Shown piece after piece: positions 1 through 9,074 of a stretch of DNA of 64,000 nt. The stretch lies in NCBI GenBank assembly GCA_010093815.1, contig ML996576.1; one strand, given 5' to 3'. The first letter of the stretch is position 1. Each line of letters begins with the position of its first letter. Origin of the DNA: Pseudovirgaria hyperparasitica. Lineage: Eukaryota. Made by a program: the position numbers and the translations under genes. The notes beneath the pieces were generated by a model. It searched no databases and was not told the DNA's origin. It saw only the letters and a program-made list of their open reading frames with translations.

Positions 1-769
1 TTGTATCAGCTTTGTGTGAATAGTCGTCGATAGCCTAATCAGTAGAATTAGAGCAGAACCTGAGACTGCGAAGTTTGATTACGTACCTGGCGAAACTCCT
101 TTACTAACTCGACGTAGTTGGCCGCATCCACCGGGCCTTATAAATATTAGCAAATTATTAGAGCTGCATTGGATAGTATAGACAACCATCCGGAAATACC
201 CATGCTAGGTCGATTCCTAACGCATTGTCAAAGCTAGTTATCAGATACCTCTCTTGCTGTACATACCATCCCATCCAAAGTTGTACATACAATGCATACA
301 AGTTTGGACAAACTTAGTGCGTCTCCCTGGATTGGCCACTGCTTCTGACCAGTTACCAGAGAGTCGCCAGCCTCCAATTGATATGATCGCTTTAAGGTGA
401 CGATACTTGCTCTTCAGGTCGACAATCTGCTTAACGTTACCAAACACGTTGTTGCCGTCCTGCTCAGAATCATCGCCCGGGAAGATTCGGTCGACATCCG
501 CATACTTGTCATAGTGGTCACTTGAATTGGGTGAATAGGTTTGCACGCAGAAATGATCTTGGTGCACATACCACTGTCCATCATTCTGAATAAGAGCAAA
601 GCCGTACACAAGATGTGTCAGGTTTTGAACATTCGTATCCGAAGGGACAAAAGCTTTGTCTGAGTAGCTAGCCTAGGATTTGTTAGAAACGTTGGTAGGT
701 ACACTCGATCAGTATTAGCTTTACCCAACTCGGATAATACCCGATGACTCTAGACTTCTCGGCGTCCAT
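1..769 (-). CDS. GH18 chitinase-like protein, catalytic motif degenerate; multi-exon, 3' end runs off the window
   Basis: Spliced reading from ATG 769: MDAEKSRVIGYYPSW|ASYSDKAFVPSDTNVQNLTHLVYGFAL...FGNVKQIVDLKSKYRHLKAIISIGGW...FGWDG|IDLAWVFPD|GPVDAANYVELVKEFRQ|AIDDYS. GYYxxW, THxxYxF and SIGGW are GH18 hallmarks. Introns are GT-AG with branch sites. Confidence 0.85.
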
Positions 770-2471: not shown

Positions 2472-3349
2472 TCATGCAAGCTTATCGAAAAACACACGTA
2501 TTAACTGAGCATCCAAAGCTCCAGGCAACAGTGATCGCACATCTGCCATGACCTCCTCGTCTGCCCGGTAGGCTTTGATCACGTTCTCGATCGGTGAGAA
2601 ATATGTTGGCTTGGCTCCGTGAGTGGCCGAAACTGCCTTCTGGCAAAACACAGGGTGGTAGAGGATTGAATGCTGAGTACCATGGAGCTCAAGCCCGACT
2701 AGCTGCACAGGAAGCTCTTCAAGTGTATAGCGGGTGAAATTCTCGAGCCGGCGATCAGTCAATGTGGCTTGGCGAAGACGGGACTGTATGTAATATGTTG
2801 AGCTTTTTTCCAGCTCATCCTCGAATCGACTACGGAATCGAACAACAGCATCTAACAATTTGTGGTACGAGTCGGTCGTGATGTCTCCCCAGCGACAAAT
2901 GTGAATAGTGCAGGACGTTGAGTTGTTGGATAGTTGCCAGTTTTTAATGAAGGTCTGTAGATGGAGAACCATTTCGTTTCCAGCTGCCATAGCCAACTTT
3001 GCAGCCCGGGAGTCACTCATACCATGAGAGATGGTTTGCTCGTACTTGTGTATCTCATCGCACACTAAGATAACGACTTTCCTGTGCCTGACCGTGAGAA
3101 CATCCAATAGTTTGGCCACATTGCTTTCATCTAGAAGAGGATTATTCCCCATCGACATTGTGACAACGCAGCTGTCCTCTGGATTGGAGGTGTTGATGGG
3201 ATAAGGTTCATCGATGGGATACATGATTCCTGTAGCAAATTGCGTGCAAGTGAAAGAATGTTTGAACAATCAAAGATACCTGACGGAGTGGAGCTGAAGT
3301 CGAACAGTGGTATCCAAGAATATTGGCTGGTGCGGCCTCCATGATGCAT
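2472..3349 (-). CDS. Putative tRNA-dependent cyclodipeptide synthase (CDPS, NYH-type)
   Basis: In ORF 2472..3269 numbering: S39-x-G-N42, RW126-127, Y135, Y181-x3-E185-x-P187 and Y204-H205 match AlbC S37/N40/Y128/Y178/E182/P184/Y202/H203 in order and spacing. Start is either ATG 3349 with an in-frame 50-nt GT-AG intron (3279-3230) or ATG 3224. Confidence 0.75.
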
Positions 3350-4004
3350 GGTGAGCGGACTTATCTATACAAACCATAAGCTTTCTCACGACGCAATTAT
3401 ATGACATCTCTGCTAGAGCTGATCTGTATACTTGCGTCTGAATCCAGCATTGTGATCGGAAGACGATATTCCCTTGACGGTAAAATGATATCAGCGGTAT
3501 GCAGTTTTGCATGCATGGAGGTTGTTTACGTGCGTTACAGTGCTTCGTTGGGACTCAGGTGATCACTTAGGCCACTCCAATGCATGAAAGTGATGCATGA
3601 GTGACATAAGTACCTTCAGACGAAAGAGACCACGCACACGGTGGCGATACATGTATATGGACAAGTGCATGAAATAATGCTGCAGCGATGCGCTGGACTG
3701 AGAAGCGCTTTCATGACTGCTGCATCATGATTATCTTGATCTGCATATCGATCGACAATATCAAAACTGCCAGTGACACAAACGCATCAAAAACGTCACT
3801 CAGCTGCAAAGCTGCAGCAAAGTGTCACTAAAGTACGCATAATACAACGTATCACTGAACAGAAAGCCTACATGATTGCGTATAAAACGACAGTCGAATC
3901 GTCGGTATTTCACTCACAAAACTTATCCACATCTTTGACTTCAATCCGAGATACCAGTAAGAAAGCCACCCTACGAATTTATTCCTATCAACGCCCACTT
4001 GAAA

Positions 4005-4573
4005 ATGCAGCTCTTTCGCGCCCTACTCCTTTCAGCTTCGGTATCAGCTCTTTCAACACGGCTTGAAAATCGAATCGGCGCATCTGAATTCATTACAGAC
4101 CTCGAAACCTACTATATCCGCGCGTTTACCCTCGATTTGTCCCTAGATCTACTCAATGGGACTGATGGAGGAGCTGCTAGAGTCACCGATGCCATGCTGG
4201 GTCTCAAGGAGGCCCGCCAAAAGCTTGAGGTAGATGCAAACTTGATGACTCCACTATCAGGGGCCGACAGCCGTGCAGTGACCAAGGAACTTGTGTCTCA
4301 CGATTCAATTGACACTAGCTATATTGGCAAAGTCAAAGATGGGGCAAGTTTACACTTTCATAACAGGCTAGATTCTAACCTATCGGGTAGAAAGATGATT
4401 TGAACAGGGCCATCTCGGAGGATAAGACTACCGAATTCTTATACTCTATCCGAACAACTGTGAAGAACCTTCTCCCTGTTATACAAAGCAAAGTCGACCC
4501 TGCAGACGGTATTGCTGTCTCGTTGATGGAACAGGATCTGATCGCCAAGATCCAAAGCGCAATCGACGTTTGA
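4005..4573 (+). CDS. Secreted HsbA-like (hydrophobic surface-binding/cell-wall) helical protein, about 173 aa
   Basis: Signal peptide MQLFRALLLSASVSA and a PLSxxDSxxV motif. A GC-AG intron at 4344-4390 (GCAAGT...CTAAC...TAG) joins in frame to KDDLNRAI...IQSKVDP...LIAKIQSAIDV-stop. Confidence 0.6.
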
Positions 4574-5629: not shown

Positions 5630-6870
5630 TTATACCTCCATGTCCATCACGATCTGTTTCACCAGCGCCTACACATGTTAGTATCAAGTGCTCTACCATA
5701 CTGCTCATTGTATGGAGCACTCACCTGCATATCCTTGCTTGCCTCCCTCCCTGCCTCCAGCACCTCTGCATGATTCGCCTTGCCCTTTTCCAACAGTTCC
5801 TCCAACTCCTGTACAGTCAGCCCCTGAATCTCAGGACTGTCGCCATGGAATCCTCCTTCCAGTACTGCCTTATTGGTTACGAGACTAAACGCCAGAACCC
5901 TCATCCCGCAGTGCCGCGCAACAACTATCTCCGGAACTGTGCTCATGCCAACCAAATCCGCGCCCAAAGTCCTCAAGGCACGACACTCTGCACGGGTCTC
6001 GTATGTTGGACCCGACAGGAACGCATACACGCCCTCGTGCAGTTTTCTCGCCTGATTTCCTCCAAACAGTTTCACGAAGCTCTGATGCGCCAATCGCCTC
6101 AGGACAAGACTGTACGCATCACTCAACCCAGGGAAACGATCGCCAAATTCAGCGATATTGGGGCCCATAAGGGGGTTTGCACCGACGAAGCCAGGGATGT
6201 TAAGATGGTCATTCAAACAAACGATGTCGCCCACAGCGTAGGATGGATTGAGGCCACCGGCGGCATTGGTGACGATCATGGTTGTTATGCCGAGGATGGA
6301 ACAGACACGAGTAGAGTAGGTTACGAGAGACATGGGGTGGCCTTCATAAAAACTTGTTTGGAGTTAGACCGGGAGGTCATATTGGAGATGCAGAAATGTA
6401 TGAGGAAGCATGGAAGATGGAGGGAGGAACCACGTGGGGCATTGTAGTTCCTCTGATGGGTGAGGAAAGGTGAACTTACTGCACGCGGCCAACGAACAGC
6501 ACAACAGGTGTATTCTTGGGCCCTAACTGGCCGAAAACGAGTTTACCGGCATGACCTTGAACTGAAAGAAGGCTGTATCAGTTCAATCCCATGTTAATCT
6601 CGGCGAAGTGTCTCATCCTTGCCATGTTCCTCTCATTGCCTTCGAAATCTATTTAAGACACGTACCTGTACTTTTAGCGAAACCGGGGACATCCCCGTAT
6701 GAAATTTCGACTTTGGGCTCTGGATTGATGGTATCCGCAAGACCCCCTAGACCTGAGCCACAAACAATCGCAATCTTGGGCTTTGCAAGTCCCTCCGGCA
6801 ATATCTTTCGAAGGTGCTGTGCAGTCTCGGTTGCTCTCTGGAAGACGCTCGCTTCAAAAGATGTGTCCAT
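5630..6870 (-). CDS. PNP1: Purine nucleoside phosphorylase (trimeric PNP)
   Basis: IVCGSGLGGL, GHAG, VGRVH, TNAAGG, GPTYET, DLVGMSTVPE and SLVTN motifs. Last exon ALVKQIVMDMEV, TAA at 5632-5630. Confidence 0.95.
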
Positions 6871-7128
6871 GATGTCTGTTTTGAAGAAGAATGTGATCTA
6901 ATAATGAAACCGGGGCAAAAGAAAGCGTAAGATGATGTTTAGAATATACTCGTGCCTTAGTGCCTTCTTTTCGCAGTAACAACTAAGCCTTGGCGAAAGC
7001 GACCGATTCTCGGGCGGTGAGCGCTGCAGAATCGAAGCAGGACTAGCGCCGAAATGTTCACGACCCGGGATAGAATCTCTTGATGCACGACGCGAAGAGC
7101 TTCATCATTGGCTGTACACATCGCAGCA

Positions 7129-9074
7129 ATGGCGGTGCCAACATGCGTGAGAGCGATGCTCCGCGTGGGCAGACGTCCAAAGGTATGTTAATGAAGATTA
7201 TGATAGAGATTCGGCTGATTTTAATTGAAACATCTTAGTTACCTACCCTTACTGCAGTGTCCCAGGTTCGCCATTCGACGGAACTACTCGAGACACATAT
7301 CACAAGTGAAGGTCTTGACATTGTTCATCTGGCAGAGTAAGTGGTGTAAGTGACAAGGAACGATGCACGTTATCTGACAATCGCCTAAGGCAGCGTGGAA
7401 TCACGATTGGCCGTAGGATGAAGTAAGTTTTCTTCAAATTACCATCCCGATTAACACATGGCTAATAATTCCAGGCTCACCGAAGAGGATATTGCTCATG
7501 TGCAGGGCATGCTCGAGAGCGGTACGATGGAAACCCCTAATGGAACGAAGACGTCAGTTTTCTGAAGAAGGACTACACCATGACCGCTGACAATACCAGG
7601 ATCACGGAGGATGAGAGGAAGCGGCTTGAGAAGATGTTGAAGGAGGGCAGAACGGAGGCCCGTACTATGAAGAAAGAGTTAGTCTTAAGAATGTAGAGCC
7701 GATGGAAAGACTGCTAACATCTCCAGGGTTACGGAACAGCAGATGGAGGGGCTTATGAAGATGGCGGAGAAGGGCGAGCCTTACAATCTGAGGGCAATGC
7801 GCCTCCAACCTTTCCGGCGCGTCCCAACTCACGGTATCCCATGCTGCGACCTTCAGCTTCGTACATACAGCATTCGGAACATGGACATGTTTGCCGACTT
7901 CGCCTTACGGGCGGCATACTATCTCAAACTCCCAGCTAAAGGGCCAATTGCGCTCCCACGGATCACGGAACGATGGACAGTGCCACGAAGCAATTTCATC
8001 CACAAGAAATCACAGGAGAATTTCGAGCGAATCACACATAGGAGACTCATACAGATACAAGATGGCCACCCTGAAACAGTGCGCATATGGCTGGGTGTTC
8101 TGAAGAAACACCAATACCATGGTGTGGGCATGAAGGCCAATATCTGGGAGCACGAAAGCCTACATGTCGCTGAAGCTGTTGAGAAGTCTCTGGACGAACA
8201 GAAAGAAGATATACAGGCTGTCTGGCAAAACTTTGGTACAAGAGCAGATATGGTAAACTCGAGAAAGGTCCGCGAGCAGCTACGGCACCCGTCACACACG
8301 GGCATCTTGGCTGAGATCGAAAAAGAGCAAGCCCTGGACAGAGGGAAGTTCCAACACAAGATTCAGGATCGCAAGCAACGTGAAGGCAATGAACAAATCA
8401 AGAGAAAGCGGATAGAAGAATCGCGCAAGAAAAAAGCGCAGGATCGCGCTCGTCTGGAGAAAGCACAAGAAAAAGCACTTCTGGAATCTATACAAGCGAA
8501 GGCTACAGCGGGTGCCAGCAAGGGCACATACAGCCAAGAGGACAAGCCTCAGCTTGCCGAGCAAGAACTGGAATTTTTGATCAATGAGTCAAAAGAAGCA
8601 GAACCAGGCGAACACGAGGTCAAACCCGGAGTAGAAACGCCTGTAGAGACTCCCGTGGTGACTGATGTATCACCGGAAGAATCTGCGACTGTGGAGGCCG
8701 CTTCAAAGCAGGCCAATGCCGGGATAACAAGCACTACAACGCCTATTGAAAACGTGCCAGAATCAGCTACTACTTCCAAACCCGTGGAAGACGTCCCAGA
8801 ACCAGCTGTACCATCCACACCCATGGAAAACGTCCTAGAACCAGCTGTAGCATCCACACCCGTGGAGGTACCAGTATCTGAACCAGTCACTGCTTCTATA
8901 TCCGTCGAAGATATTTCTGAACCAGCTCCCACTCCCACTCCTACTCCTACTCCCACTCCCACTTCCACAGCCGAAGCCCCAGCTCCCACTCCAATTCCCA
9001 CAACCCCAGAGGACTCTAATACGACCGATTCCGTCGTGCCCCCGAAGGAGTCCGGTGAGCAGCAGAAGAAGTAA
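7129..9074 (+). CDS. RSM10: Mitochondrial small-subunit ribosomal protein uS10m with extended acidic Pro/Thr-rich C-terminus; multi-exon
   Basis: S10 domain LQLRTYSIRNMDMFADFALRAAYYLKLPAKGPIALPRITERWTVPRSNFIHKKSQENFERITHRRLIQI. Arg-rich presequence MAVPTCVRAMLRVGRRPK. Confidence 0.9.

Follow-up and report, generated by a model that had tools for sequence, protein, structure and literature searches.

A probable cyclodipeptide synthase gene of an XYP-related fungal clade in the Dothideomycete Pseudovirgaria hyperparasitica

In the work presented here a stretch of 64,000 nucleotides from contig ML996576.1 of Pseudovirgaria hyperparasitica (assembly GCA_010093815.1), in the following called the window, was analyzed. 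The minus strand of the window between positions 2472 and 3224 very probably holds an intact single-exon gene for a cyclodipeptide synthase (CDPS) of 250 amino acids, which belongs to a fungal clade related to the XYP subfamily of these enzymes and is located on a Dothideomycete chromosome. CDPSs are mostly bacterial, and fungi have been thought to make diketopiperazines through non-ribosomal peptide synthetases. For some ten years genome sequences have been known to contain fungal CDPS genes, and no new kind of pathway is opened here. New are the Dothideomycete host, the presence of a serine nucleophile position in a clade that mostly has cysteine, and a pocket signature that is changed in comparison to the Fusarium enzymes.

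Gene model

An earlier annotation of this stretch (the original prediction) had proposed a fungal tRNA-dependent CDPS of the NYH type at positions 2472-3349. The gene and its predicted active-site positions are listed below in gene numbering, with the bacterial enzymes ParcuCDPS and AlbC as references.

2472..3224, minus strand: coding sequence of the CDPS, single exon, 250 amino acids plus stop codon, ATG at 3224
3153..3155, minus strand: TCG codon of Ser24, predicted acyl-enzyme nucleophile, aligned to ParcuCDPS Ser26
3057..3059, minus strand: GAT codon of Asp56, counterpart of ParcuCDPS Asp58 (Ser/Asp dyad)
2709..2729, minus strand: Y166-T-L-E-E170-L-P172, Tyr/Glu helix motif corresponding to AlbC Y178/E182/P184 and aligned to ParcuCDPS Y167/E171
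2652..2657, minus strand: His190-Pro191, at the Tyr202-Pro203 position of XYP enzymes, directly preceded by Tyr189 and with Phe193 at His190+3

The minus-strand frame is open from 2472 to 3269 (265 amino acids counted from a TTG, stop codon at 2472-2474) and contains all the motifs by which it had originally been recognized, namely VVTMSMGN, ICRWGDI, DSY, YTLEELP and ILYH. Its first in-frame ATG is located at 3224, 15 codons inside this open reading frame (ORF), and the resulting 250-amino-acid protein matches an entry of a public protein collection letter for letter. Two alignments bear on the start: the M-Y-P beginning also occurs in 4 rows of the clade alignment A1, which comprises 14 rows besides the window protein, and the clade profile alignment begins at residue 2 of FoCDPS, a Fusarium relative of known structure. 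The start was therefore placed at the ATG at 3224, and the 5' intron that had been considered possible is not needed, since a single exon suffices and the relatives share the start methionine. A 5' exon at 3270-3554 was rejected as a candidate, as the ORF there matches no family significantly and the homologues begin at the same methionine.

Thus, the gene does not extend to 3349 but begins, on the minus strand, at 3224. Positions 3225-3349 are upstream non-coding DNA outside the CDPS gene, and the ATG-initiated ORF at 3131..3349 is in a different frame. The residue numbers of the original prediction equal the gene numbers plus 15 (its S39 is Ser24), and their near match to the AlbC numbering arose because they were counted from a non-fungal TTG start. 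The frame is intact, and its length is usual for the family, the full-length relatives having 238-273 amino acids.

Sequence and fold of the encoded protein

When all PDB sequences were searched with phmmer, the best match was FoCDPS (31ee_A, E=6.1e-52, ORF residues 31-263), followed by seven chains of ParcuCDPS with E-values from 5e-9 to 7e-8. The clade profile likewise ranked FoCDPS first (6.4e-89), followed by ParcuCDPS (2e-16), the enzyme from P. gingivalis (4e-9) and Fdum (1e-8); at the weaker end stood the enzyme from S. haemolyticus (2e-3) and AlbC with only 0.24. The ORF had been described as orphan-looking, but its entry in the public collection already carries the precomputed label PF16715.12.

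Furthermore, the fold of the protein was predicted. The AlphaFold2 model based on A1 reached a mean pLDDT of 89.0 and a pTM of 0.87. With this model Foldseek listed CDPS structures in all 35 rows, down to rank 49, and in VIA-align the best 26 PDB entries were all CDPSs (Z 14.2-17.9 over 198-211 aligned residues), followed by tyrosyl-tRNA synthetases (TyrRS) with Z-scores of 12.2 or less. A model from the ESM Atlas matched a cluster that is 99% PF16715 with a TM-score of 0.73. The predicted fold is of the Rossmann type and resembles class Ic aminoacyl-tRNA synthetases. The outcome that would have spoken against the original prediction, a structure other than a Rossmann-fold CDPS, was not observed, as both structure searches return CDPSs. 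Its central proposal, a fungal tRNA-dependent CDPS, is borne out to the extent that the protein is a homologue which retains the Ser, Tyr, Glu and Pro positions and has a predicted CDPS fold.

Assignment to the XYP or the NYH subfamily

In AlbC numbering the NYH signature is N40/Y202/H203 and the XYP signature X40/Y202/P203, as quoted in the part of PMC7613923 that was available. The original prediction had described a complete NYH catalytic set, and the protein would then be a CDPS of the AlbC/YvmC/Rv2275 type with Asn27, Tyr189 and His190 as N40, Y202 and H203. The sequence does contain a Tyr-His pair as well as an Asn three residues past the serine, and the column of Tyr189 contains Tyr in 9 of the 13 A1 rows that have a letter there. 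However, this reading requires the deletion of one residue between Glu and Tyr, the distance between them being 19 in the assignment made there (Glu185-Tyr204 in its numbering) versus 20 in AlbC (Glu182-Tyr202); in ParcuCDPS it is also 20 (E171 to Y191). Aligned without a gap, AlbC Y202/H203 fall on His190/Pro191 and not on Tyr189/His190.

The same register was obtained by three programs. In the phmmer alignment His190-Pro191 lies on ParcuCDPS Y191-P192, and MAFFT placed it identically in the alignment of the 66 HMMER hits described below. The hhalign comparison of A1 with an alignment of 25 bacterial relatives (A2) gave a probability of 99.8% with no gap from Glu to His190-Pro191, the Tyr and the Pro being invariant in 25/25 A2 rows. 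Thus, the NYH assignment was off by one residue, since His falls on Tyr and Pro on Pro in the XYP Tyr-Pro motif. At the fixed spacing Glu+20/+21, YP was found in 28 and HP in 14 of 63 scored rows, these being the rows in which the motif was found by script; the remaining rows are mixed, several of them mis-anchored or truncated. Tyr-His occurs in the His190-Pro191 columns in none of the 66 hits of the MAFFT alignment.

Asn27 does not discriminate between the subfamilies, because Asn at position 40, three residues after the serine, is also common in XYP-like hits (GISLGN). With phmmer as well as with the clade profile, XYP enzymes rank above NYH enzymes in all PDB sequence hits, the profile value for AlbC contrasting with that for the XYP enzyme ParcuCDPS. 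In the available part of Gondry et al. 2018 (PMC5816076) the fungal CDPSs are placed in the XYP subfamily, the eukaryotic members of which come from fungi. Taken together, an NYH enzyme is very improbable. From the XYP signature the protein retains Pro203 (Pro191), whereas Tyr202 is replaced by His190, and position 40 is variable in the clade (E/N/K/R/T). From the NYH signature Asn27 is present, with His190/Pro191 at positions 202/203. The other catalytic positions named in the original prediction were well chosen, as Ser24, Tyr166, Glu170 and Pro172 align with their CDPS counterparts.

Active site and proposed mechanism

The part of the ParcuCDPS study available to us (PMC7613923) names S26, Y167, E171 and Y191 as conserved active-site residues, S26 being the catalytic serine, and reports that D58 is needed and probably polarizes the serine. 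In the phmmer alignment Ser24, Asp56, Tyr166 and Glu170 correspond to ParcuCDPS S26, D58, Y167 and E171, and Pro172 lies on the following Pro. In the columns of these four residues, Ser, Asp, Tyr and Glu, no variation is seen among 25/25 bacterial relatives (A2, where the Asp is D60), and the Asp56 column is conserved to at least 90% in A1. The column of Tyr202 holds His in 10 of the 13 lettered A1 rows. As judged from these alignments, His at the Tyr202 position is common to the window protein, its clade and some bacterial relatives. The His-Pro variant of the Tyr-Pro motif is also seen outside the fungal-containing clade (hits P0018, P0021, P0023, P0031, P0032 and P0060; L001 3001-3960), where some of the proteins are 270-750 amino acids long and carry N-terminal extensions. 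P0018, the only one of these hits whose source was traced, comes from a Bacteriovoracaceae metagenome-assembled genome (MAG).

What the analysis shows is the homology of the protein, its fold, the matching of its residues and the genomic surroundings of the gene, whereas each catalytic step and any substrate are inferred. By homology, an aminoacyl-tRNA would bind and its aminoacyl group would be moved onto Ser24, which Asp56 may polarize as in ParcuCDPS while Tyr166 and Glu170 would hold the aminoacyl moiety. A second aminoacyl-tRNA would then lead to a dipeptidyl-enzyme, and cyclization of the latter would yield a 2,5-diketopiperazine, with His190 at the site of the cyclization residue Tyr202 of other CDPSs. 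The product is probably untailored, or would be tailored by genes elsewhere.

Relatives and the Ser/Cys switch

In a HMMER scan of 1.84 billion representatives 66 hits reached E<=1e-3; of these, 15 had E<=1e-10 and 6 had E<=1e-30. The closest representative is only about 40% identical to the window protein. The close relatives with a named source are from Fusarium xylarioides and Ophiocordyceps australis, a Sphingobacteriaceae MAG is given as the source of one short fragment, and hits at greater distance look bacterial. After removal of 11 rows, namely ten that were truncated and the spurious hit P0052, a quick maximum-likelihood tree was calculated from the other 55 rows. In this tree the window protein is nested in a clade of 5 rows (SH-aLRT 97) within a clade of 12 rows (98) that includes the Fusarium and Ophiocordyceps proteins.

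The nucleophile column of A1 contains Cys in 12 rows, Ser in one, the window protein, and a gap in two. Cys is present in 11/11 other rows of the 12-row clade. Over all 66 rows of the MAFFT alignment, 15 have Cys in this column and 46 have Ser, the latter including the spurious P0052; Asn occurs in 1 row, and 4 rows have a gap. Cys at the position of the catalytic Ser is thus found in most representatives of the fungal-containing clade and in FoCDPS (hits P0002-P0016, P0028 and P0048). The Ser of the window protein is not unique among the fungal enzymes, as the synthetic gene of CDPS 93 from F. fujikuroi, translated by eye from the part of supplementary file 1 of Gondry 2018 at hand, also encodes Ser at this position. 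On the sequences compared, the fungal clade holds both Ser and Cys nucleophile positions, and so do the proteins of Fusarium taken by themselves.

The exchange would be compatible with activity, because the S26C variant of ParcuCDPS retains some activity and still makes product, according to the accessible text of PMC7613923. In the literature searched (subscription journals outside coverage) nothing relevant was found on a Cys nucleophile in CDPSs. Such forms may be under-reported, because the family survey of 2018 discarded sequences without the catalytic serine, as stated in the available part of PMC5816076. A word-indexed protein search returned only the query itself when the single sequence was used, and the query together with P0011 and P0013 when A1 was used; since it missed proteins that form rows of A1 itself, this search is silent on rarity.

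Substrate pockets

Pocket positions were taken from the part of Gondry 2018 available (PMC5816076) and transferred via the gap-free alignment of the window and Fusarium proteins. Pocket P1 would be formed by V20-T22-L53-C55-W112-V173-Q174 and, depending on the register discussed below, by L188 or P191, and the helix positions of P2 would be S141-Y144-Y145-S148. As P1 appears to be lined by hydrophobic or small polar residues, the first substrate is likely non-charged. The original prediction had noted a Thr at the pocket Gly position. Thr22 is found there, but the relatives do not share a Gly and vary between Ala, Val, Leu and Gly. The pocket differences would suggest that the window protein and the Fusarium enzymes do not make the same product.

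Genomic setting and origin

The following features were found around the CDPS gene.

241..672, minus strand: GH18 (chitinase-type) gene, one exon, continuing towards the window edge (PF00704, E=1.2e-16)
3999..4573, plus strand: small ORFs with a hydrophobic N-terminus, possible secreted protein (weak HsbA-like match to PF12296, E=0.014, 16.3 bits versus a cut-off of 33.5 bits; a lead only)
5659..6897, minus strand: purine nucleoside phosphorylase (PNP), at least 2 exons, housekeeping type (PF01048, E=2e-39)
also on the right side: mitochondrial-type ribosomal S10 and L5, ubiquitin hydrolase (UCH), SNF2-RING helicase and APH-like kinase

PNP shares 64-76% identity with proteins from across the Dothideomycetes that bear the name purine nucleoside phosphorylase. 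The ORFs at 3999-4573, which adjoin the CDPS gene, have a signal-peptide-like start (MKMQLFRALLLSASVSALS); HsbA stands for hydrophobic surface binding protein A. The ribosomal S10-type ORF at 7689-9074 on the plus strand carries a long C-terminal tail, which is Lys/Glu-rich and then contains Pro/Thr/Val/Glu repeats, PF00338 covering residues 55-150 only. A tandem array of about 12 units of about 20 nt (TGTGGATACTTACCAGACAT-like) is located at 1305-1561 in the spacer between GH18 and the CDPS gene, about 0.9 kb past the 3' end of the latter.

None of the 38 ORFs scanned between positions 1 and 22,000 of the window matches a typical tailoring family (P450, methyltransferase, prenyltransferase or oxidase), ORFs of less than 90 amino acids having been mostly left unscanned. 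This agrees with the earlier remark that no tailoring genes are adjacent. On the left side a cluster may exist, since only 2.4 kb are visible there.

Since most CDPSs come from bacteria and the hits at greater distance look bacterial, it was considered whether contaminating bacterial DNA or an assembly artefact could account for the gene in place of a fungal origin. However, the gene lies on a contig of 1,454,559 bases between the GH18 and PNP genes, with eukaryotic housekeeping genes in its flanks, and a fragment of the flanking PNP is 99% identical to a protein labelled Pseudovirgaria hyperparasitica. Its GC content (0.47) equals that of the flanks (0.43-0.52), and its nearest relatives are fungal. 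The probability of such an artefact is therefore negligible.

A recent horizontal transfer of this fungal gene was likewise rejected: besides the unremarkable GC content, no tRNA genes were found in the window and no long repeats flanking the CDPS gene. The horizontal origin put forward in the original prediction is plausible for the whole clade, but it would have to be old, as the GC content is like that of the flanks and the closest relatives are only distantly similar. Any transfer from bacteria would thus concern the clade and not the copy in the window, because the GC content is in the range of the flanks and tRNA genes are absent from the window.

Arguments against the assignment and alternative readings

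Several points weigh against the assignment of the window protein to an XYP-related clade of active CDPSs. Its scores of 25.0 bits for PF16715 and 43 bits for TIGR04539 lie under the curated cut-offs of 27 and 45 bits. Being narrowly below these values, the protein can look like an orphan, and the PF16715 search recommended in the original prediction ends in a near miss by score but a positive label in the protein collection. In the gap-free register His190 is found where the canonical Tyr202 would be expected. The Z-scores from VIA-align do not separate the subfamilies (Fdum 17.5, YvmC 16.6, Rgry 14.2), and structure was left out of the subfamily call because the values of XYP and NYH templates overlap. 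The comparison with the NYH enzymes AlbC, YvmC and Rv2275 was not residue by residue, and for AlbC it used position numbers, the profile score and the fold.

Another register is implied by the pocket strings given for Fusarium in the available part of the Gondry 2018 supplement (PMC5816076), which are AALCWVQP for P1 and SFYRRN(A/P) for P2. For these strings to fit, the Pro of 'HP' must be position 200 and the 'YP' of HPVYP must be Y202-P203, and positions 202-203 of the window protein would then be Phe193-Cys194. We prefer the gap-free register, because the aromatic residue at Glu+23 (F or Y in 29 of the 63 rows) is a separate conserved position in bacterial relatives too (YPTY) and because the second Pro is present in only part of the clade. 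The candidate cyclization residue is His190 in the gap-free and Phe193 in the other register, and this divergence belongs to the same list of objections. On its sequence, the window protein is not an NYH enzyme in either register. Finally, the activity of the fungal clade is predicted from homology, and its two tested members, CDPS 45 and CDPS 93 from Fusarium, gave no cyclodipeptide in E. coli according to the part of Gondry 2018 available (PMC5816076). The authors attribute this inactivity to E. coli tRNAs that do not suit the enzymes or to incorrect start codons.

These observations would also fit a protein with a CDPS fold that no longer makes cyclodipeptides and is either a decaying relic or an enzyme transferring aminoacyl groups from tRNA to another acceptor. 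In addition to the inactivity of the two Fusarium relatives, the replacement of Tyr202 and the switching of the nucleophile column between Ser and Cys within the clade point in this direction, as do the lack of tailoring genes among the scanned ORFs and the apparent isolation of the gene in its class, where even the closest representative reaches an identity of only about 40%. On the other hand, the frame is intact and of family-typical length, none of the residues Ser, Asp, Tyr, Glu and Pro has been lost, and the depositors of 31ee name the Fusarium relative a cyclodipeptide synthase. Moreover, the explanation of Gondry et al. for the inactivity in E. coli and the still productive S26C variant of ParcuCDPS argue against a loss of function. 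We therefore regard this reading as unlikely and retain that of a CDPS.

Fungal CDPSs were catalogued between 2015 and 2018 (Jacques 2015; Gondry 2018, PMC5816076), the entries in the part of the catalogue available being F. graminearum, two of F. fujikuroi, F. verticillioides, two F. oxysporum formae, F. proliferatum and Penicillium griseofulvum. According to a review from 2022 there are twelve CDPSs from eukaryotes, spread over four phyla of which Ascomycota is one, and studies based on antiSMASH call CDPS genes in Fusarium (PMC10786395; PMC13006487). The description of the pathway as undescribed was therefore overstated, as fungal CDPSs have been listed and called by antiSMASH, two have been tested, and the structure of FoCDPS is in the PDB. 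The part of this claim that holds concerns the product, since none has been assigned to any fungal CDPS in the literature searched; for Fusarium, a statement from 2024 says that no CDPS-derived product is known (PMC10786395). To the hosts in the 2018 catalogue, which are Fusarium and Penicillium species, the gene described here adds a Dothideomycete.

Within the CDPS assignment a further, rather speculative reading may be considered, to which we give a small but appreciable chance. The fungal-containing clade could represent a mechanistic variant, 'X-His-Pro', with His in place of the cyclization Tyr and a nucleophile that is freely Cys or Ser, and could need eukaryotic tRNAs; such a requirement, if true, would explain the failures in E. 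coli. Pseudovirgaria hyperparasitica is a Dothideomycete described as a mycoparasite of rust sori in the available part of PMC3317363, and the window protein might act there as a stand-alone enzyme making an untailored diketopiperazine that serves as a signal or as a weapon against the rust host.

Comparison with known systems

AlbC from Streptomyces noursei (PDB 3OQV, NYH) has the same fold as the model of the window protein (VIA-align Z 14.5, rmsd 3.8 over 200 residues), and by analogy the same ping-pong acyl-enzyme chemistry may be expected. In contrast, its sequence is barely detectable with the clade profile (E=0.24), and in the gap-free alignment His replaces its Y202 and Pro its H203.

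ParcuCDPS from Parcubacteria bacterium RAAC4_OD1_1 (PDB 7QB8 and mutants) is an XYP enzyme that makes cyclo(His-Pro); in the accessible part of Gondry 2018 (PMC5816076) it is also listed with cyclo(His-Glu). It is the best characterized relative by sequence (E about 1e-8), and its Ser26, Asp58, Tyr167 and Glu171 have counterparts in the window protein, Pro192 corresponding to Pro191. However, its catalytic Tyr191 is replaced by His190, and the window protein is about 40 residues longer at the C-terminus. As L53, V173 and L188 replace Y55, E174 and Y189, which bind His in the P1 pocket of ParcuCDPS, a histidine substrate is unlikely.

FoCDPS (PDB 31ee/31eg) aligns over its whole length with the window protein, including the C-terminal 40 residues that are unmatched by bacterial CDPSs. 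CDEIHKYE, RLENFT.YTL.ELPVQL and the xHPV strand are common to both proteins. They differ in that FoCDPS has Cys instead of Ser24, Glu instead of Asn27 and, after 'HPV', Tyr-Pro instead of Phe-Cys. A paper on FoCDPS was not found in the literature searched, with subscription journals outside coverage.

CDPS 45 (F. graminearum XP_384791.1) and CDPS 93 (F. fujikuroi CCT76237.1) belong to the same fungal clade and to the XYP subfamily, as far as the available part of Gondry 2018 shows. Whereas Fusarium is a member of the Sordariomycetes, the window gene comes from the Dothideomycetes. CDPS 93 shares Ser at the nucleophile position with the window protein. Judged from the same source, five of the first seven P1 residues are common (LCWVQ), the complete string of Fusarium being AALCWVQP and that of the window protein VTLCWVQ(P), and the P2 helix positions mapped here read S-F-Y-R in Fusarium as compared to S-Y-Y-S. 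Because of its Ser nucleophile position and its differing pocket, the window protein could serve as a point of comparison in assays of the fungal clade.

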